Virus record (IMG/VR): IMGVR_UViG_2663763286_000020
Location: 1 to 5,281 of that record
Reading direction: 5' to 3' (one strand)
Source of the DNA: a virus
Taxonomy: Duplodnaviria > Heunggongvirae > Uroviricota > Caudoviricetes
Length of the DNA: 5,281 bases
In this document: positions 1-5,281 of the stretch, piece after piece
How positions within the stretch are numbered: position 1 is the stretch's first letter
How the letters are laid out: every line of letters starts with the position of its first letter
Notes under the pieces: generated by a model
Databases searched by the model: none
What the model saw: the letters and a program-made list of their open reading frames with translations, nothing else
Told to the model about the DNA's origin: nothing
Translations under genes and position numbers: made by a program

Positions 1-3
1 CTG

Positions 4-807
4 GTGGTTGTTCAGAATCAGTCTGATGAAATTCCCGTTCTGGAATGGCAGGGAGTGCGTGTAGTGACAACTAAGATCCTTGCTAAGGGGTATGGGACAG
101 ATGCGGATAACATCAAGAAGAACTTTTCCCGTAATGCTGAACGTTTTTGTGAAGGCAAGCATTTCTATAAAGTTATTGGAGATGATTTGAACAATTTGCG
201 GGTGACTTTAAGTAACTCACAAAATCCTATCTCTCCTAAAGCCCGCTCACTCATCCTCTGGACGGAACGCGGCGCAGCCCGCCACGCTAAAATGCTCGAA
301 ACCGATCAGGCATGGGCATTCTTTGAAAAACTGGAAGACAGCTACTTCCGGCAAAAAGAACAGCAACCGGTTGCAATCCCCCAGACGCTTCCAGAAGCTC
401 TGCGCCTGGCTGCCGAACTGGCTGAACAAAAGCAGCTTCTGGAACAGAAAGCCCACCAGCTAAATCAGCAGCTGGTGGCCGCCGCTCCTAAAGTCGATTT
501 TGCCGACCGGGTATCAGTAGCTAAAGGGATCCTGATTGGGAATTTTGCAAAGGTTGTTGGACTTAAGCAAAACGCGCTGTTTGTCTGGTTACGGGAGAAC
601 GGCATCCTGATAGCGTCCGGTGGACGTAAAAATGTGCCGTTCCAGCAGTACATCAACGCGGGGTATTTCACGGTGAAAGAAGTGGTGCTGGATGATGAAG
701 ATGGCTACCAGATACGGTTGACGCCTCAATTAACGGGTAAAGGCCAGCAGTGGTTGACGCGTAAACTGCTCGATGCTGGCTTGTTAAAACCGGTGGCGGC
801 TGAATAA
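4..807 (+). CDS. Antirepressor-family protein, left paralog: N-terminal ORF6N/KilA-N-like module plus C-terminal KilAC-like antirepressor domain. The frame is open from base 1, so the start may be GTG at 4 or lie upstream of the window.
   Basis: 267-codon ORF ending TAA 805-807. N-terminal motifs (LAKGYGTD..NIKKNFSRNAERFCEGKHFYKV..LWTERGAARHAKML..AWAFFEKLEDSYF) and C-terminal motifs (LPEALRLAAE..KGILIGNFAKVVGL..GILIASGGRKNVPFQQYINAGYFTVKEV) fit that architecture by recall, not by a database hit. Bases 1-3 are CTG where the right-hand paralog has ATG. Confidence 0.8.
   Translation: MVVQNQSDEIPVLEWQGVRVVTTKILAKGYGTDADNIKKNFSRNAERFCEGKHFYKVIGDDLNNLRVTLSNSQNPISPKARSLILWTERGAARHAKMLETDQAWAFFEKLEDSYFRQKEQQPVAIPQTLPEALRLAAELAEQKQLLEQKAHQLNQQLVAAAPKVDFADRVSVAKGILIGNFAKVVGLKQNALFVWLRENGILIASGGRKNVPFQQYINAGYFTVKEVVLDDEDGYQIRLTPQLTGKGQQWLTRKLLDAGLLKPVAAE
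256..807. repeat. Left arm of a long inverted repeat (3' about 550 bp of the antirepressor-like gene); partner is about 4478-5029.
   Basis: Spot comparison of segments 241-540 with the reverse complement of 4741-5050 shows 0-4 substitutions per 60 nt (about 95-97% identity), mostly synonymous. Boundaries are approximate; no full alignment was computed. Confidence 0.8.
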
Positions 808-814
808 TGGAAGA

Positions 815-836
815 ATGCCCGGTTGATGCCGGGCAT
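815..836. terminator. Candidate bidirectional intrinsic terminator between the convergent antirepressor-like gene and c1.
   Basis: Perfect hairpin ATGCCCGG-ttgatg-CCGGGCAT (8-bp GC-rich stem, 6-nt loop), 8 nt after the TAA of the plus ORF and 3 nt before the c1 stop. It is followed by AATTTATT on the plus strand; the U-tract is only moderate in both directions. Confidence 0.5.
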
Positions 837-839
837 AAT

Positions 840-1691
840 TTATTGCGCGCTTTCGGGGTTGTCGTTTACTGGCTGCCCCTTCTTGGTTTTACGGCTGCGC
901 GTAACTGATGCGGCTGATTTGACCTTTTTCTCTTCGCGAGTGATGGCAATTTGTTTTTTTACATTTTCAATATCTGCCAGGCGATATATTTTTGCCTGCG
1001 GCCAGCGGTCGCAGATGATCGGTTCTATAGAGTCATAAAGGCTAAATTTTGCTTTCTCGAATTCACCGTTGATGATGATTCCATCACGGAGAGTTTCATC
1101 GCAGATAAACACACCACACAGCGGCACATGGTAACTAACTGATTTACCATCATTGTAGTTAGGGCTACTAGAAATGTAATGGACGCGCAGCATTGTTTCG
1201 CTAAAGCCGTGTACGCGCATACGGAATTTTTCATCCTCCGGGTACTGCTTCATTAGCTCTTTTGTTGCTTCCAGGTTCTCTATGTATTTCGCACTGTGCT
1301 CATTGATCCCCGCGCTTTTTTGGATGCGAATGTCCTTATCAATCAGATGAATAATGCGGCCAGCGGTCATGTTGACGCTGTTCACAGCTTCTGTCTGATA
1401 AGTTGTAACCTTACGCACACCGCGAAGGGTGTTAGGCACTGGATATAAAATAGTCTTTGGGATATTGAGGTCTGGGTACTGTTCCAGTTCCCGCGCCATT
1501 AAAGTCCATTTATCAATTTCAGCCTGAATGCTGTCAGTTTCTTTGAACGGTAGAACGACAACCGGGCGTACAGGACGACCGTCGCTGGCTGTATCAACGT
1601 GTTGGGCGCGTGCAACAGCTTTTTTTAGAAAGAGATCCCTGAAGCTGACGAACTCCTGGTACAGTTGTTCGCCGTAGACATAATTTATCAT
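840..1691 (-). CDS. c1: C1 immunity repressor of phage P1 type.
   Basis: 283-aa product MINYVYGEQLYQEFVSFRDLFLKK... matches recalled P1 C1 in length and sequence. ATG at 1689-1691 (complement) is preceded by a strong SD GGAGGAGG with 4-nt spacing; stop TAA at 840-842 (complement). Confidence 0.95.
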   Translation of the reverse strand: MINYVYGEQLYQEFVSFRDLFLKKAVARAQHVDTASDGRPVRPVVVLPFKETDSIQAEIDKWTLMARELEQYPDLNIPKTILYPVPNTLRGVRKVTTYQTEAVNSVNMTAGRIIHLIDKDIRIQKSAGINEHSAKYIENLEATKELMKQYPEDEKFRMRVHGFSETMLRVHYISSSPNYNDGKSVSYHVPLCGVFICDETLRDGIIINGEFEKAKFSLYDSIEPIICDRWPQAKIYRLADIENVKKQIAITREEKKVKSAASVTRSRKTKKGQPVNDNPESAQ

Positions 1692-1713
1692 TGATCCTCC
1701 TCCAGAATTGACA

Positions 1714-1756
1714 TGGCCAACAACTCACAGCGGATTACACTGGGAGTTGTTGGCCA
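1714..1756 (-). repeat. Perfect 13-bp inverted repeat with 17-nt spacer in the c1 leader, about 23 nt upstream of the c1 start.
   Basis: TGGCCAACAACTC (1714-1726) pairs with GAGTTGTTGGCCA (1744-1756). Not followed by a U-tract on either strand, so not a classic terminator. Function unknown. Confidence 0.6.
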
Positions 1757-1758
1757 CC

Positions 1759-1802
1759 ATTATAGAAGGATCCAACGAAAATAATAGATTTATTAGTGCA
1801 TT
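1759..1802 (-). promoter_or_regulatory. Candidate c1-proximal promoter with a C1 operator-like site at the -35 position.
   Basis: A perfect TATAAT on the minus strand (complement of 1759-1764). 22 bp upstream, at 1786-1802, the minus-strand sequence AATGCACTAATAAATCT matches 14/17 of the P1 C1 operator consensus ATTGCTCTAATAAATTT. The site overlaps the coi stop codon. Confidence 0.45.
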
Positions 1803-2011
1803 TATTGTGAGTCTGGCTGGTTAGTGGCCATGAGATATTCGATTGTGTCAGTGAGATCATCCAGGTCGTCTTGGGTGATGCGGTACTCCTGATTGGATAT
1901 CTTTGAGTAGTGTTCAGCAATGGCGCGGGCAGCGTCGGTTTCGGCGGGGTCTACAGATAAAGCGTTAGAGCAATGTCTAACGTCGTCGATGGTTGGTGGA
2001 ATGAAAGCCAT
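1802..2011 (-). CDS. coi: Coi-like C1 inactivator, a small acidic protein co-oriented with and upstream of c1.
   Basis: 69-aa ORF MAFIPPTIDDVRHCSNALSVDPAETDAARAIAEHYSK... in the position and of the size of P1 coi. ATG at 2009-2011 (complement). Assigned by synteny and size; the sequence was not verified against a database. Confidence 0.8.
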   Translation of the reverse strand: MAFIPPTIDDVRHCSNALSVDPAETDAARAIAEHYSKISNQEYRITQDDLDDLTDTIEYLMATNQPDSQ

Positions 2012-2245
2012 AATTATGCCTCACTGTATTGACAACACAGAGCCTGAAGCTCTGACCTACTGTTTCACCCATGATCCATGCTGGGGTAATCTAACAACAT
2101 TGCGCTGTGTGTAAGATGAGCAATGCATAGCTGTAATGCCGTTGTATAAGGTTTCCCTGTTTGCTCATTTCCTTCTGAGCCGCTCTACAACGCTGAAGAC
2201 ACATTAAATAGTGAATCCAAAGTCGTATTACGAAACGGCGGCAAA

Positions 2246-2272
2246 ACTATAATTTATTAGAGCAATTGTCAA
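2246..2272 (-). promoter_or_regulatory. Minus-strand promoter for the coi-c1 operon with an overlapping C1 operator (the P99a/Op99a-type arrangement of P1).
   Basis: On the minus strand, a -35 TTGACA (complement of 2267-2272) is followed directly by ATTGCTCTAATAAATTA (complement of 2250-2266), a 16/17 match to the C1 operator consensus. A -10-like TATAGT (complement of 2246-2251) follows with 15-nt spacing. Confidence 0.65.
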
Positions 2273-2332
2273 ACAACTATGAAAAACAATCCAGTTTTTG
2301 GCTGGTGGAGTGGGATTTTTCTCTCAAAATTT

Positions 2333-2349
2333 ATTGCTCTAATAATTCT
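2333..2349 (+). promoter_or_regulatory. C1 operator-like site in plus orientation, about 45 bp from loxP.
   Basis: ATTGCTCTAATAATTCT matches 15/17 of the consensus ATTGCTCTAATAAATTT, with the first 13 positions perfect. Confidence 0.6.
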
Positions 2350-2392
2350 TGATTTTTATGCGTAGCTGGACGTAAACTCCTCTTCAGACCTA

Positions 2393-2426
2393 ATAACTTC
2401 GTATAGCATACATTATACGAAGTTAT
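2393..2426. other. loxP: loxP site-specific recombination site (Cre target).
   Basis: ATAACTTCGTATA-GCATACAT-TATACGAAGTTAT: perfect 13-bp inverted repeats around the asymmetric 8-bp spacer. This is an exact match to wild-type loxP (spacer reads ATGTATGC on the other strand). Confidence 0.97.
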
Positions 2427-2498
2427 CTTAAGGGTTATTGAACATGATTAATTTACCTGTAAATCCATACAGTTCAATACCTTATCAGGTCAAATAGT

Positions 2499-2518
2499 GA
2501 TCACTTGATCATTTGATC
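2499..2518 (+). promoter_or_regulatory. Dam-methylation (GATC) cluster in the cre upstream promoter region.
   Basis: Three GATC sites at 2499-2502, 2507-2510 and 2515-2518 (8-bp spacing) inside palindromic TGATCA/TTGATCAA units, with TTGATC hexamers resembling a -35 element. P1 cre is known to have an upstream promoter whose -35 region carries Dam sites. Confidence 0.6.
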
Positions 2519-2523
2519 AAGGT

Positions 2524-2584
2524 TGCGCTACGTAAAATCTGCGAAATGTTGGCAGTGTTAGTGCTCCAGATTTCGCGTAGCGCA
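2524..2584. repeat. Long imperfect inverted repeat between the GATC cluster and the small ORF upstream of cre.
   Basis: TGCGCTACG (2524-2532) pairs with CGTAGCGCA (2576-2584), and AAATCTG (2535-2541) pairs with CAGATTT (2567-2573), with a 2-nt internal mismatch and a 25-nt loop. No U-tract follows. Confidence 0.5.
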
Positions 2585-2615
2585 CTTACCACCACCAATC
2601 AATCAGAGGTGAAAA

Positions 2616-2837
2616 ATGGGATATTCAGCTGCTAAAGTGTCCACTCATATTGAGCTTGAGAAAAACCGTGGTTACTGGCGGGCAAAAGGGTTTGATCGTG
2701 ATAGTTGTCAACTGTCATTATCGCGCGGTGAAGAGAAAATAGAACGCACGCGCGGTCGCTGGCGTTTCTATGACGAGAACCATAAACAGGTAAAGGCAGA
2801 GCCGATCCTGTACACTTTACTTAAAACCATTATCTGA
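2616..2837 (+). CDS. Small basic hypothetical protein (73 aa) immediately upstream of cre, probably co-transcribed with it.
   Basis: ATG at 2616 is preceded by a good SD AGAGGTGA. The product is R/K-rich (MGYSAAKVSTHIELEKNRGYWRAKGFDRD...). Stop TGA 2835-2837 lies 7 nt before the cre ATG. Function not recognised. Confidence 0.5.
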   Translation: MGYSAAKVSTHIELEKNRGYWRAKGFDRDSCQLSLSRGEEKIERTRGRWRFYDENHKQVKAEPILYTLLKTII

Positions 2838-2844
2838 GTGTTAA

Positions 2845-3876
2845 ATGTCCAATTTACTGACCGTACACCAAAATTTGCCTGCATTACCGGTCGATGCAAC
2901 GAGTGATGAGGTTCGCAAGAACCTGATGGACATGTTCAGGGATCGCCAGGCGTTTTCTGAGCATACCTGGAAAATGCTTCTGTCCGTTTGCCGGTCGTGG
3001 GCGGCATGGTGCAAGTTGAATAACCGGAAGTGGTTTCCCGCAGAACCTGAAGATGTTCGCGATTATCTTCTATATCTTCAGGCGCGCGGTCTGGCAGTGA
3101 AAACTATCCAGCAACATTTGGGCCAGCTAAATATGCTTCATCGTCGGTCCGGTCTGCCACGACCAAGTGACAGCAATGCTGTTTCACTGGTCATGCGACG
3201 GATCCGAAAAGAAAACGTTGATGCCGGTGAGCGTGCAAAACAGGCGCTGGCGTTCGAACGCACTGATTTCGACCAGGTTCGTTCACTCATGGAAAATAGC
3301 GATCGCTGCCAGGATATACGTAATCTGGCATTTCTGGGGATTGCTTATAACACCCTGTTACGTATAGCCGAAATTTCCAGGATCAGGGTTAAAGATATCT
3401 CACGTACTGACGGTGGGAGAATGTTAATCCATATTGGCAGAACGAAAACGCTGGTTAGCACCGCTGGTGTAGAGAAGGCACTTAGCCTGGGGGTAACTAA
3501 ACTGGTTGAGCGATGGATTTCTGTCTCTGGTGTAGCTGATGATCCGAATAACTACCTGTTTTGCCGCGTCAGAAAAAATGGTGTTGCCGCGCCATCATCC
3601 ACCAGCCAGCTATCAACTCGCGCCCTGGAAGGGATTTTTGAAGCAACTCACCGATTGATTTACGGGGCAAAAGATGACTCTGGTCAGCGATACCTGGCCT
3701 GGTCTGGACATAGTGCCCGTGTCGGTGCCGCGCGAGATATGGCCCGCGCCGGAGTTTCAATACCGGAGATCATGCAAGCTGGTGGCTGGACCAACGTAAA
3801 TATTGTCATGAACTACATTCGTAACCTGGATAGTGAAACAGGGGCAATGGTGCGCCTGCTGGAAGATGGCGATTAG
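2845..3876 (+). CDS. cre: Cre tyrosine site-specific recombinase (P1 type).
   Basis: 343-aa product MSNLLTVHQNLPALPVDATSDEVRKNLMDMFRDRQAFSEHTWKMLL...GWTNVNIVMNYIRNLDSETGAMVRLLEDGD recognised as P1 Cre. Its cognate loxP lies 418 bp upstream. Confidence 0.98.
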   Translation: MSNLLTVHQNLPALPVDATSDEVRKNLMDMFRDRQAFSEHTWKMLLSVCRSWAAWCKLNNRKWFPAEPEDVRDYLLYLQARGLAVKTIQQHLGQLNMLHRRSGLPRPSDSNAVSLVMRRIRKENVDAGERAKQALAFERTDFDQVRSLMENSDRCQDIRNLAFLGIAYNTLLRIAEISRIRVKDISRTDGGRMLIHIGRTKTLVSTAGVEKALSLGVTKLVERWISVSGVADDPNNYLFCRVRKNGVAAPSSTSQLSTRALEGIFEATHRLIYGAKDDSGQRYLAWSGHSARVGAARDMARAGVSIPEIMQAGGWTNVNIVMNYIRNLDSETGAMVRLLEDGD

Positions 3877-3893
3877 CCATTAACGCGTAAATT

Positions 3894-3910
3894 ATTGCTC
3901 TAATTCATTG
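3894..3910 (+). promoter_or_regulatory. C1 operator-like site between cre and the downstream small ORF (position of P1 Op2-type operators).
   Basis: ATTGCTCTAATTCATTG matches 14/17 of the consensus, with the first 11 positions perfect. Confidence 0.45.
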
Positions 3911-3926
3911 ATATTTATGGTGACAT

Positions 3927-4238
3927 ATGAGAAAGGATTTCAACATCGACGGAAAATATGTAGTGCTGTCTGTAAGCACTAATATTCAGTCGCCAGCCGT
4001 CATTGTCACTGTAAAGCTGAGCGATAGAATGCCTGATATTGACTCAATATCCGTTGCGTTCCCTGTCAAAAGTATGCGTGGTGCTGAACATTTCGTGATT
4101 AACGCCTCCGAGGAAGAAGCACGGCGCGGTTTTGCTAAAGTGATGTCTGAGTTTGGCGAATTTTTGTGGCACGTTGACAAAGCCCTCTCAATCAGTTCAG
4201 CAAGGTCCAAAGCGTTAACAGCTTCCATGATGAAATAA
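3927..4238 (+). CDS. Hypothetical 103-aa protein downstream of cre, in the position occupied by cra in P1. The sequence itself is not recognised.
   Basis: ATG 3927 with a weak SD (GGTGA, short spacing). Residue composition looks protein-like (..SEEEARRGFAKVMSEFGEFLWHVDKALS..). An operator-like site lies 17 bp upstream. Preferred over the overlapping minus-strand ORF 3986-4318, which contains a terminator hairpin. Confidence 0.5.
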   Translation: MRKDFNIDGKYVVLSVSTNIQSPAVIVTVKLSDRMPDIDSISVAFPVKSMRGAEHFVINASEEEARRGFAKVMSEFGEFLWHVDKALSISSARSKALTASMMK

Positions 4239-4262
4239 AAAAGCCTGGCAAGGAGCCAGGCT
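4233..4262 (-). terminator. Intrinsic terminator oriented for minus-strand transcripts.
   Basis: Hairpin AGCCTGG-caaggag-CCAGGCT (4242-4262). On the minus strand it is followed by TTTTTATTT (plus-strand A-tract 4233-4241). On the plus strand it sits 3 nt after the 4236-4238 stop codon but has no downstream T-tract. Confidence 0.6.
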
Positions 4263-4368
4263 GCACAAAAGAGCGGGTTTGTATTCCGCATACAATCAAT
4301 CAAGAAGGAGTATAGCACACAGGTACTGAAGAGAAAAAATGTGATTCGCGATAAATAAAATAGCCACT

Positions 4369-4412
4369 ATTGCTATAATTAATTGTTATAATTGAGTTGT
4401 GGCTTTAGTCAA
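4369..4412 (-). promoter_or_regulatory. Promoter island with a C1 operator-like site: minus-strand promoter TTGACT-16-TATAAC, plus two plus-strand TATAAT boxes.
   Basis: Minus strand: -35 TTGACT (complement of 4407-4412), 16-nt spacer, -10 TATAAC (complement of 4385-4390). ATTGCTATAATTAATTG (4369-4385) matches 14/17 of the operator consensus and overlaps the -10 and predicted start. Plus-strand TATAAT at 4374-4379 and 4387-4392. Confidence 0.45.
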
Positions 4413-4451
4413 CTACGAAGACATTGCCATTATAGACTCCGTGACATCATT

Positions 4452-4475
4452 GGCGGCCGAAAGGCCGCCTTTTTT
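4452..4475 (+). terminator. Rho-independent terminator for plus-strand transcripts, at the inner edge of the right inverted-repeat arm.
   Basis: GGCGGCC-gaaa-GGCCGCC, a perfect 7-bp GC stem with a GNRA-type tetraloop, followed by six T (4470-4475). It lies 2 nt from the stop codon of the convergent minus-strand gene. Confidence 0.8.
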
Positions 4476-4477
4476 AA

Positions 4478-5029
4478 TCATTCAGCCGCCACCGGTTTTA
4501 ACAAGCCAGCATCGAGCAGTTTACGCGTCAACCACTGTTGGCCTTTCCCCGTTAATTGAGGCGTCAGCCGTATCTGATAGCCATCTTCATCATCCAGCAC
4601 CACTTCTTTCACTGTGAAATATCCGGCGTTTATGTACTGCTGAAACGGTACATTTTTACGTCCGCCGGACGCAATCAGGATGCCGTTCTCCCGTAACCAG
4701 GCAAACAGCGCATTTTGCTTAAGTCCAACAACCTTTGCAAAATTCCCAATCAGGATCCCCTTAGCCACTGATACCCGGTCGGCAAAATCGACCTTAGGGG
4801 CGGCGGCCACCAGCTGCTGATTTAGCTGGTGGGCTTTCTGTTCCAGAAGTTGCTTTTGTTCAGCCAGCTCGGCAGCCAGGCGCAGAGCTTCGGGAAGCGT
4901 CTGAGGGATTGCGACCGGTTGCTGTTCTTTTTGCCGGAAGTAGCTGTCTTCCAGTTTTTCAAAGAATGCCCATGCCTGATCGGTTTCGATCATTTTAGCG
5001 TGGCGGGCTGCGCCGCGTTCCGTCCAGAG
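4478..5029. repeat. Right arm of the long inverted repeat (partner of about 256-807).
   Basis: Reverse complement of 4741-5050 aligns colinearly with 241-540 at high identity (see left arm). Boundary is approximate. Confidence 0.8.
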
Positions 5030-5281
5030 AGTGAGGTTTCTGGCGTTCTTACCAACAGAGTTACTAAAAGTAACTCTGTTCTTAAATTCCTTTAATTTTG
5101 AACCAGTTAAAAGAAAGTAGTGTTTACCTTCTTCAAAGCGATCGGAGTTGCAAGACAAATTTTTACGAATATTGCCTTCATCGGTTCCGTACCCCTTAGC
5201 AAGAGTTTCGGTTGTTACGACACGTACTCCCTGCCATTCCAGAACGGGAATTTCATCAGACTGATTCTGAACAACCACCAT
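4478..5281 (-). CDS. Antirepressor-family protein, right paralog (ORF6N/KilA-N-like N-terminus plus KilAC-like C-terminus), inverted relative to the left copy.
   Basis: 267-aa ORF starting with ATG at 5279-5281 (complement), exactly at the window edge, with stop TGA at 4478-4480 (complement). The C-terminal ~180 residues differ from the left copy at only 2 positions. N-terminal motifs RFEEGKHYFLLTGSKLKEFKN and LWTERGAARHAKMI are typical of this domain family. Confidence 0.85.
   Translation of the reverse strand: MVVVQNQSDEIPVLEWQGVRVVTTETLAKGYGTDEGNIRKNLSCNSDRFEEGKHYFLLTGSKLKEFKNRVTFSNSVGKNARNLTLWTERGAARHAKMIETDQAWAFFEKLEDSYFRQKEQQPVAIPQTLPEALRLAAELAEQKQLLEQKAHQLNQQLVAAAPKVDFADRVSVAKGILIGNFAKVVGLKQNALFAWLRENGILIASGGRKNVPFQQYINAGYFTVKEVVLDDEDGYQIRLTPQLTGKGQQWLTRKLLDAGLLKPVAAE

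Follow-up and report, generated by a model that had tools for sequence, protein, structure and literature searches.

A Cre-loxP module in its P1 context between inverted ant genes: the immC-lox-cre segment of a probable P1-like phage-plasmid of Escherichia

The stretch of DNA analysed here (5,281 nucleotides; hereafter the window) comes, with very little doubt, from a natural phage-plasmid of Escherichia that resembles P1, of which it is the immC-lox-cre segment, and the inverted ant genes at its two ends are read as parts of two extra c4-icd-ant operons. A reading made from the sequence alone (the sequence-only reading) had described a complete wild-type Cre-loxP module placed in a non-canonical neighbourhood, away from its P1 neighbours. 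The comparison with P1 set out below shows that the immediate neighbourhood of Cre-loxP is canonical for P1.

To align the window with the P1 reference (NC_005856), we joined the end of that record to its start and so rebuilt the circular junction. Window positions 841-4475 gave a single alignment to this junction, 3638 columns long and 96.9% identical, with two gap openings (three gapped positions) and, counting mismatches and gapped positions together, 122 differing positions over 3.6 kb. The gene order of this core, c1-coi-imcB-imcA-loxP-cra-cre-c8 followed by the ref promoter region, is that of P1 (Table 1), and P7, phiW39, SJ46 and other P1-like phages have this core block too. In relatives of the window, c1 carries the annotation "phage repressor protein C1". 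The window thus shares with P1 the genes c1, coi and imcBA to the left of the module and c8 with the ref promoter to its right, and the claim that the neighbours known from reference P1 are absent was not upheld: the flanking genes are those of P1 for about 1.55 kb on the left side of loxP and for 2.05 kb on its right side.

Table 1. Features of the window, with their relation to P1
Feature	Position	Strand	Remarks
ant-like antirepressor gene, left	1-807	+	3' 804 nt; cut by the left end of the window
Terminator-like hairpin between convergent ant and c1	815-836	+	Consensus scan; P1 homology from 841
c1, primary repressor of lytic functions	840-1691	-	283 aa; 280/283 identical to P1 C1.100
Oc1ab, bivalent C1 operator overlapping Pc1	1775-1802	-	0 differences from P1
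coi, C1 inactivator	1802-2011	-	69/69 aa, 0 nt differences from P1
imcB	1977-2072	-	Identical to P1
imcA	2091-2204	-	1 aa difference from P1
Region with Oc1d, Oc1e, P1coi and P4cre	2250-2378		P1coi identical; P4cre 1 nt off P1
Oc1d	2250-2266		Identical to P1
Oc1e	2333-2349		Identical to P1
loxP	2393-2426	+	Exact match
LexA box, inside P2coi	2455-2474	+	Identical to annotated P1 site; P2coi also identical
GATC cluster (2499, 2507, 2515)	2499-2538	+	Overlaps P3cre
P3cre	2513-2538	+	Identical to P1
cra, Cre-associated small ORF	2616-2837	+	73 codons; 71/73 aa identical to P1 Cra
P2cre, inside cra	2692-2721	+	1 nt off P1
P1cre, inside cra	2809-2833	+	Identical to P1
cre, tyrosine recombinase	2845-3876	+	343 aa; 341/343 identical to P1 Cre
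c8, putative lysogeny-establishment gene	3927-4238	+	103 aa; 94/103 identical to P1 C8
P1 ref control region remnant: P2ref with Oref, P1ref, hairpin	4364-4469	+	P1 homology stops at 4475
Oref	4369-4385	+	2 differences from P1
GC-rich hairpin, then T-run	4452-4469	+	ref control region
ant-like antirepressor gene, right, inverted	4478-5281	-	3' 804 nt; cut by the right end of the window

The perfect 34-bp loxP that had been claimed survived re-inspection, with 0 mismatches to ATAACTTCGTATAGCATACATTATACGAAGTTAT at 2393-2426. This sequence had a single match in the window and none in 200 dinucleotide-preserving shuffles. The site is built of 13-bp inverted arms, ATAACTTCGTATA, around an asymmetric 8-bp spacer, GCATACAT, and transfer through the alignment places it at 94784-94800 plus 1-17 of P1 (NC_005856). 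The distance of 418 bp given between loxP and the cre ATG is also correct (2845 - 2426 - 1 = 418), and the small ORF said to lie between them is cra, at 2616-2837.

Other lox-like sites with which this loxP might pair were sought on pO26_98E11_1 (NZ_AP027182.1), the nearest relative among the complete replicons that were read from end to end. An arm-N8-arm scan of all 99,281 bp, allowing up to 3 and up to 8 mismatches, found no second lox site: the replicon has one perfect loxP, and the next candidates, at 8 mismatches, are noise, so that no credible partner emerged. P1 likewise has one loxP per genome, and a second lox site is not expected. Elsewhere on NZ_AP027182.1, a lone 13-bp lox arm with 1 mismatch lies at 6607.

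As had been reported, the cre ORF is intact, encoding 343 amino acids without a frameshift. Its product differs from P1 Cre by two substitutions, A178S and A252S, both conservative and both away from the catalytic residues, and 27 of the 1032 nucleotides of the gene differ. The label "wild-type" therefore fits the loxP site, which is exact; for Cre, which carries these two substitutions, it is only nearly right. The catalytic residues R173, E176, K201, H289, R292, W315 and Y324 are all unchanged. Over its full length the protein can be aligned with P1 Cre chains of known structure (1nzb and others; E about 1e-229); it also matches the Pfam family Phage_integrase (PF00589; E 2.8e-32) and is identical to the product translated from plasmid pE2865-1, where it is annotated as WP_000067535.1. 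With an exact loxP, a Cre identical to that of P1 at 341 of 343 residues and a collinear core, the identification of the module as P1 Cre-loxP is secure. From this identity, the catalytic residues, the site, the control elements and the context, we infer that Cre is active as a recombinase.

A promoter consensus scan was uninformative (5 sites, against 8.3 in shuffled sequence), and the P1 promoters, operators and Dam sites were instead placed by transferring the P1 annotation through the alignment. The annotated P1 features map over with 0 to 1 differences, the exceptions being Dam site 1, which reads GATT here (2446-2449), and Oref, which has 2 differences. Oc1c, placed in the same way, is identical to P1. 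The GATC-rich promoter stretch that had been noticed between loxP and cre is real: it holds five GATC sites (2499, 2507, 2515, 2694 and 2804), the last four of which are conserved with P1. Those at 2507 and 2515 are the annotated P1 Dam sites 2 and 3, and the one at 2499 is additional. The window therefore resembles the P1 Cre-loxP system (NC_005856) in loxP, the catalytic residues, cra, the four cre promoters, Oc1e, the LexA box and two of the three Dam sites, and it differs from P1 in A178S and A252S of Cre, in the loss of Dam site 1 and in the gain of one GATC. A further difference from P1 lies in what adjoins the core, namely an inverted ant gene where P1 has ref and a c4-icd-ant operon between pacB and c1. 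An Rfam scan at gathering thresholds found no structured RNA inside the window; all matches lay in the flanks of relatives.

The ORFs at both ends encode proteins with the Pfam domains ORF6N and ANT/KilAC (KilAC, PF03374; E 3e-31 and 6e-33), in agreement with the antirepressor-like genes that the sequence-only reading had placed beside the module. In NZ_AP027182.1 and NZ_AP018809.1 (pE2865-1) the full ant coding sequence spans 370 aa. The C-terminal 177 residues of window ant have 75% amino acid identity to P1 Ant1/Ant2, and the N-terminal ORF6N part of the window proteins gave no blastp alignment to P1 Ant. In P1 the two genes are nested (ant1 48688-49731, ant2 48937-49731), and both edges of the window fall at the codon that matches the in-frame P1 Ant2 start, an ATG at the right edge and a CTG at the left. 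The right ant is 100% identical at the amino acid level to residues 104-370 of the ant located right of c8 in pO26_98E11_1, and the left ant is 83% identical, over the whole ORF, to the left ant of that plasmid. For window 1-255, blastn returned no match to pE2865-1. In its N-terminal (ORF6N) part the left ant is thus another allele than the one in pE2865-1 and pO26_98E11_1.

We regard the two ends as belonging to two additional immI-like operons because in relatives an icd-like gene and a C4 RNA precede each ant. This is the case for both ant genes of NZ_AP027182.1, where the two C4 RNAs score 75.9 and 71.7 bits in Rfam, above the gathering score; a match to the c4-a1b1 target, which lies beyond the window, was found there for the right module only. 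The ant genes at the ends of the window are accordingly read, on sequence grounds, as distal genes in two additional operons of the c4 RNA-icd-ant type. One operon would have been inserted between pacB and c1, genes that are 24 bp apart in P1. The other would lie just after c8, at the position of ref in the P1 reference; it begins 3 bp past the end of P1 homology, just before the P1 ref start. The window has no ref gene, and the relatives have no ref-sized gene after the module; beyond the right module they carry a small ORF, in some also a SIR2-family gene, and then res/mod. With the extra left operon the pac-lox distance is about 5.7 kb, an estimate based on where pacA lies in pE2865-1, versus 3995 bp in P1.

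These modules are like the immI operon of P1 and P7 (c4 RNA, icd, ant1/ant2) in having the KilAC C-terminal domain, in the order seen in relatives, where ant follows icd and a C4 antisense RNA, and, for the right copy, in an in-frame ATG at the Ant2 position. They differ from immI in being extra copies elsewhere in the genome, without kilA-repL after them. Comparable arrangements have been published. According to Venturini et al. 2019 (PMC6906374), pTZ20_1P and RCS47 have an ant inserted where pacB and c1 adjoin, pJIE250-3 has additional ORFs separating c8 from mat, and pSvP1 has homologues of icd-ant1/2 in its res-mod region of difference (RD-1). On P1-like plasmids with several immI modules, the literature search gave only passing mentions.

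The sequence-only reading had placed the module inside a cassette bracketed by inverted repeats. The repeat itself exists: the arms at 250-818 and 4467-5035 (569 nt) show 95% complementarity, those at 2-166 and 5116-5280 (165 nt) show 77%, and positions 2-56 are the exact reverse complement of 5226-5280, a match of 55 nt at the extreme ends. The identity profile along the arms is mosaic (98%, then about 52%, then 90-100%), a pattern that shows sequence exchange between the two ant genes. Long inverted arms, the exact match at the ends and the mosaic profile are what might be expected if the 5.3-kb segment were a discrete unit bounded by inverted repeats that inverts or moves with Cre-loxP and immC. 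We therefore searched plasmids with a synthetic 3-kb query for the inverted form, in which the 3' end of pacB is joined to reversed c8-cre, and with a control query in which pacB is joined to c1-coi. Of 703 plasmids, none had the inverted query joined in one place; for the control, which represents the observed configuration, 550 of 704 did, a count that includes plasmids with a 1.7-kb ant operon in between. The two arms also occur independently: counting PLSDB plasmids that cover at least 80% of each junction, the left one (ant next to c1, window 1-1700) is present in 319 and the right one (c8 next to inverted ant, window 3900-5281) in only 39. Moreover, the arms are coding genes whose operons, in relatives, run outward past the window, and both the inner block and the flanks outside the arms of relatives consist of P1 backbone arranged as in P1. 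Among the matches listed that span the core, all were annotated with P1-type context (c1, Cre/integrase, terminase). The cassette, of which no inverted form was found among the plasmids searched, is thus largely refuted and in our view highly improbable, and the inverted repeat is better read, from the sequences of its arms, as the homology of the two ant genes than as the terminal repeats of a mobile unit.

Two other origins of the arrangement are less probable still. The inverted ends could be an artefact of assembly, a contig closed on a repeated k-mer, so that the second ant would not in truth be adjacent to c8. Assemblers commonly use a k of 55, the length in nt of the terminal match, and on each side the window ends one base past the repeat. 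Against this, the arms are not collapsed copies, since they differ by 5-48% along their length, and the two-armed arrangement occurs in many finished circular plasmids, including NZ_CP117623.1 and NZ_AP027182.1. Because it is confirmed in finished plasmids, we do not take the arrangement for an artefact and give that explanation hardly any weight; the exact identity of the 55-nt ends could reflect the way the window or contig was cut. Equally hard to credit is a laboratory source for Cre-loxP, whether vector contamination or an engineered construct. A perfect loxP and a near-perfect Cre are ubiquitous in vectors, and several database records bear a name in the style of vectors, "GST-loxP-cre recombinase fusion protein". 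However, cre is 27 nt, and the 3.6-kb block 122 aligned positions, away from laboratory P1, the module is surrounded by its native c1-coi-imc and c8 context, and the identical Cre is encoded by a plasmid from a field isolate, pE2865-1 of bovine E. coli.

The natural P1-like phage-plasmid favoured here has many close relatives. At least 80% of the window is covered in 242 PLSDB plasmids and in 260 of 5426 complete E. coli genomes, a threshold that can be reached without the right arm, as the left arm and the core alone make up 85% of the window. STEC and E. albertii account for most of the records that have both arms. The phage-plasmids pO26_98E11_1, pE2865-1 and pEA24_3 of STEC and E. albertii have the whole arrangement, including both inverted ant arms, at 97.5-99% identity over 97-100% of the window: pEA24_3 (NZ_CP117623.1) matches at 97.7% over 100% in one piece, pO26_98E11_1 (NZ_AP027182.1) at 99.0% over 97%, and in pE2865-1 (NZ_AP018809.1; bovine E. 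coli, Japan) the part corresponding to window 2410-5281 is 99.97% identical. No exact copy of the whole window was found in the three collections searched. Beyond the arms, the relatives are flanked by phd/doc, lpa, pacA and pacB on the left and by type III res/mod on the right, all P1 backbone. As these relatives are 95-99% identical to the window, a P1-like backbone probably continues beyond its ends. No data contradicting the reading as a P1-like phage-plasmid were found.

P1 Cre is a tyrosine recombinase with Tyr324 as its nucleophile, and it recombines two loxP sites through a Holliday intermediate. A Cre dimer binds the 13-bp arms, synapsis of two loxP sites takes a tetramer of Cre, and cleavage by Tyr324 and strand exchange take place within the 8-bp spacer. 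In P1 the partner loxP is supplied by the ends of the injected virion DNA, which are terminally redundant, or by the other half of a plasmid dimer. By analogy, Cre of the window would act as it does in P1, cyclising injected DNA and resolving dimers to monomers before partition, and the two recombining copies of loxP would not reside on one plasmid circle. The P1-type promoters P1cre to P4cre would drive the expression of cre, controlled by C1 (through Oc1e) and by Dam methylation.

The Cre-loxP module is a known system in a known, common and published variant of P1, and it is neither novel nor surprising. Cre-loxP is among the best-characterised recombination systems and stands here in its normal P1 context, so that its presence is of little consequence. 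The impression of a non-canonical neighbourhood came from a comparison with the single reference P1 and not with the hundreds of P1-like plasmids that have been sequenced.

One lead for specialists is peripheral to the module: plasmids of this kind carry several c4-icd-ant immunity modules, and the recognition loops of their RNAs co-vary. Plasmid pO26_98E11_1 carries four c4-icd-ant modules, and from one of these to the next the a'/b' loops of the C4 RNA change together with their targets in the mRNA. It is possible, though we consider it rather doubtful on the sequences at hand, that the inverted operons bracketing immC and the two further copies on the plasmid all function as immI loci and differ in the specificity of their C4 RNAs. 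Homology between the arms could also allow the immC-lox-cre core to be swapped between plasmids through a double crossover. If the modules do differ in specificity in this way, one P1-like plasmid could resist several P1/P7-type rivals and break their immunity.

The two inverted ant arms at the ends of the window were compared over positions 1-830 and 4452-5281, and we observed a mosaic of identity: the initial 50 nt are 98% identical, identity drops to about 52-54% at 101-250, and it is 90-100% between 251 and the stop codon. The nearest relative, pE2865-1, differs from the window in the N-terminal allele of the left ant arm. Together, this mosaic and the differing allele point to recombination or gene conversion, through which the ant copies would have exchanged sequence. 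At the outer edges, the 55 nt at 2-56 and those at 5226-5280 are exact reverse complements of each other. The window extends one base past this match at either end (1-56 and 5226-5281) and stops there at the Ant2-equivalent start codon, which is CTG in the left copy and ATG in the right. The 55-nt match and the end points may reflect the cutting of the contig or window.

Next to the right arm, the P1 ref promoters and Oref operator (2 mismatches) are retained at 4364-4469, but the ref ORF is absent downstream of them in the window and no ref-sized gene is annotated at the same place in relatives. These promoters now face the convergent ant gene and point into its 3' end, with a retained GC hairpin and T-run in between. 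The stretch of NZ_AP027182.1, the closest complete relative, that separates the right c4-icd-ant module from the type III res/mod genes contains two genes, one hypothetical and one of the SIR2 family (L001 14400-16402 of that record). This pair may represent defence-type cargo carried at the ref/mat hot spot.

The cre control region differs from that of P1 at its Dam sites: P1 Dam methylation site 1 reads GATT in the window (2446-2449), and a new GATC at 2499-2502, 8 bp upstream of Dam site 2, brings the count to three GATC sites in 20 bp. In the pE2865-1 record, coi lacks 121 nt (window 1844-1964), which are found at the extreme end of the record, so that loxP is split exactly at the record's origin. 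This displacement appears to be an artefact of how the record was edited or rotated, not biology.

Coordinates within stretches of NZ_AP027182.1 (L005, L006) and NZ_AP018809.1, pE2865-1 (L007, L008).
Feature	Location	Strand	Record
C4-RNA/icd/ant module	L005 14952-15037	-	NZ_AP027182.1
C4-RNA/icd/ant module	L006 3453-3538	+	NZ_AP027182.1
C4-RNA/icd/ant module	L006 9972-10059	-	NZ_AP027182.1
C4-RNA/icd/ant module	L006 36630-36715	-	NZ_AP027182.1
Displaced 121 nt of coi	L008 8379-8499 / L007 1		NZ_AP018809.1, record ends

Four C4-RNA/icd/ant modules are present in NZ_AP027182.1. In its pacB-c1 module, C4 is far more diverged, an isrK-like match lies upstream and a c4-a1b1 match is absent. When modules were aligned (alignment A1), the b'/a' loops of C4 and the a1/b1 and a2/b2 target sites co-varied from one module to the next: GTTAGTG pairs with CACTAAC in P1, GATTGTG with CACAATC in canonical immI, and TTAGCAG and GTACATG with CATGTAC...CTGCTAA in the module right of c8. 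Because loops and targets change together between modules, their sequences suggest that the modules would have distinct immunity specificities.
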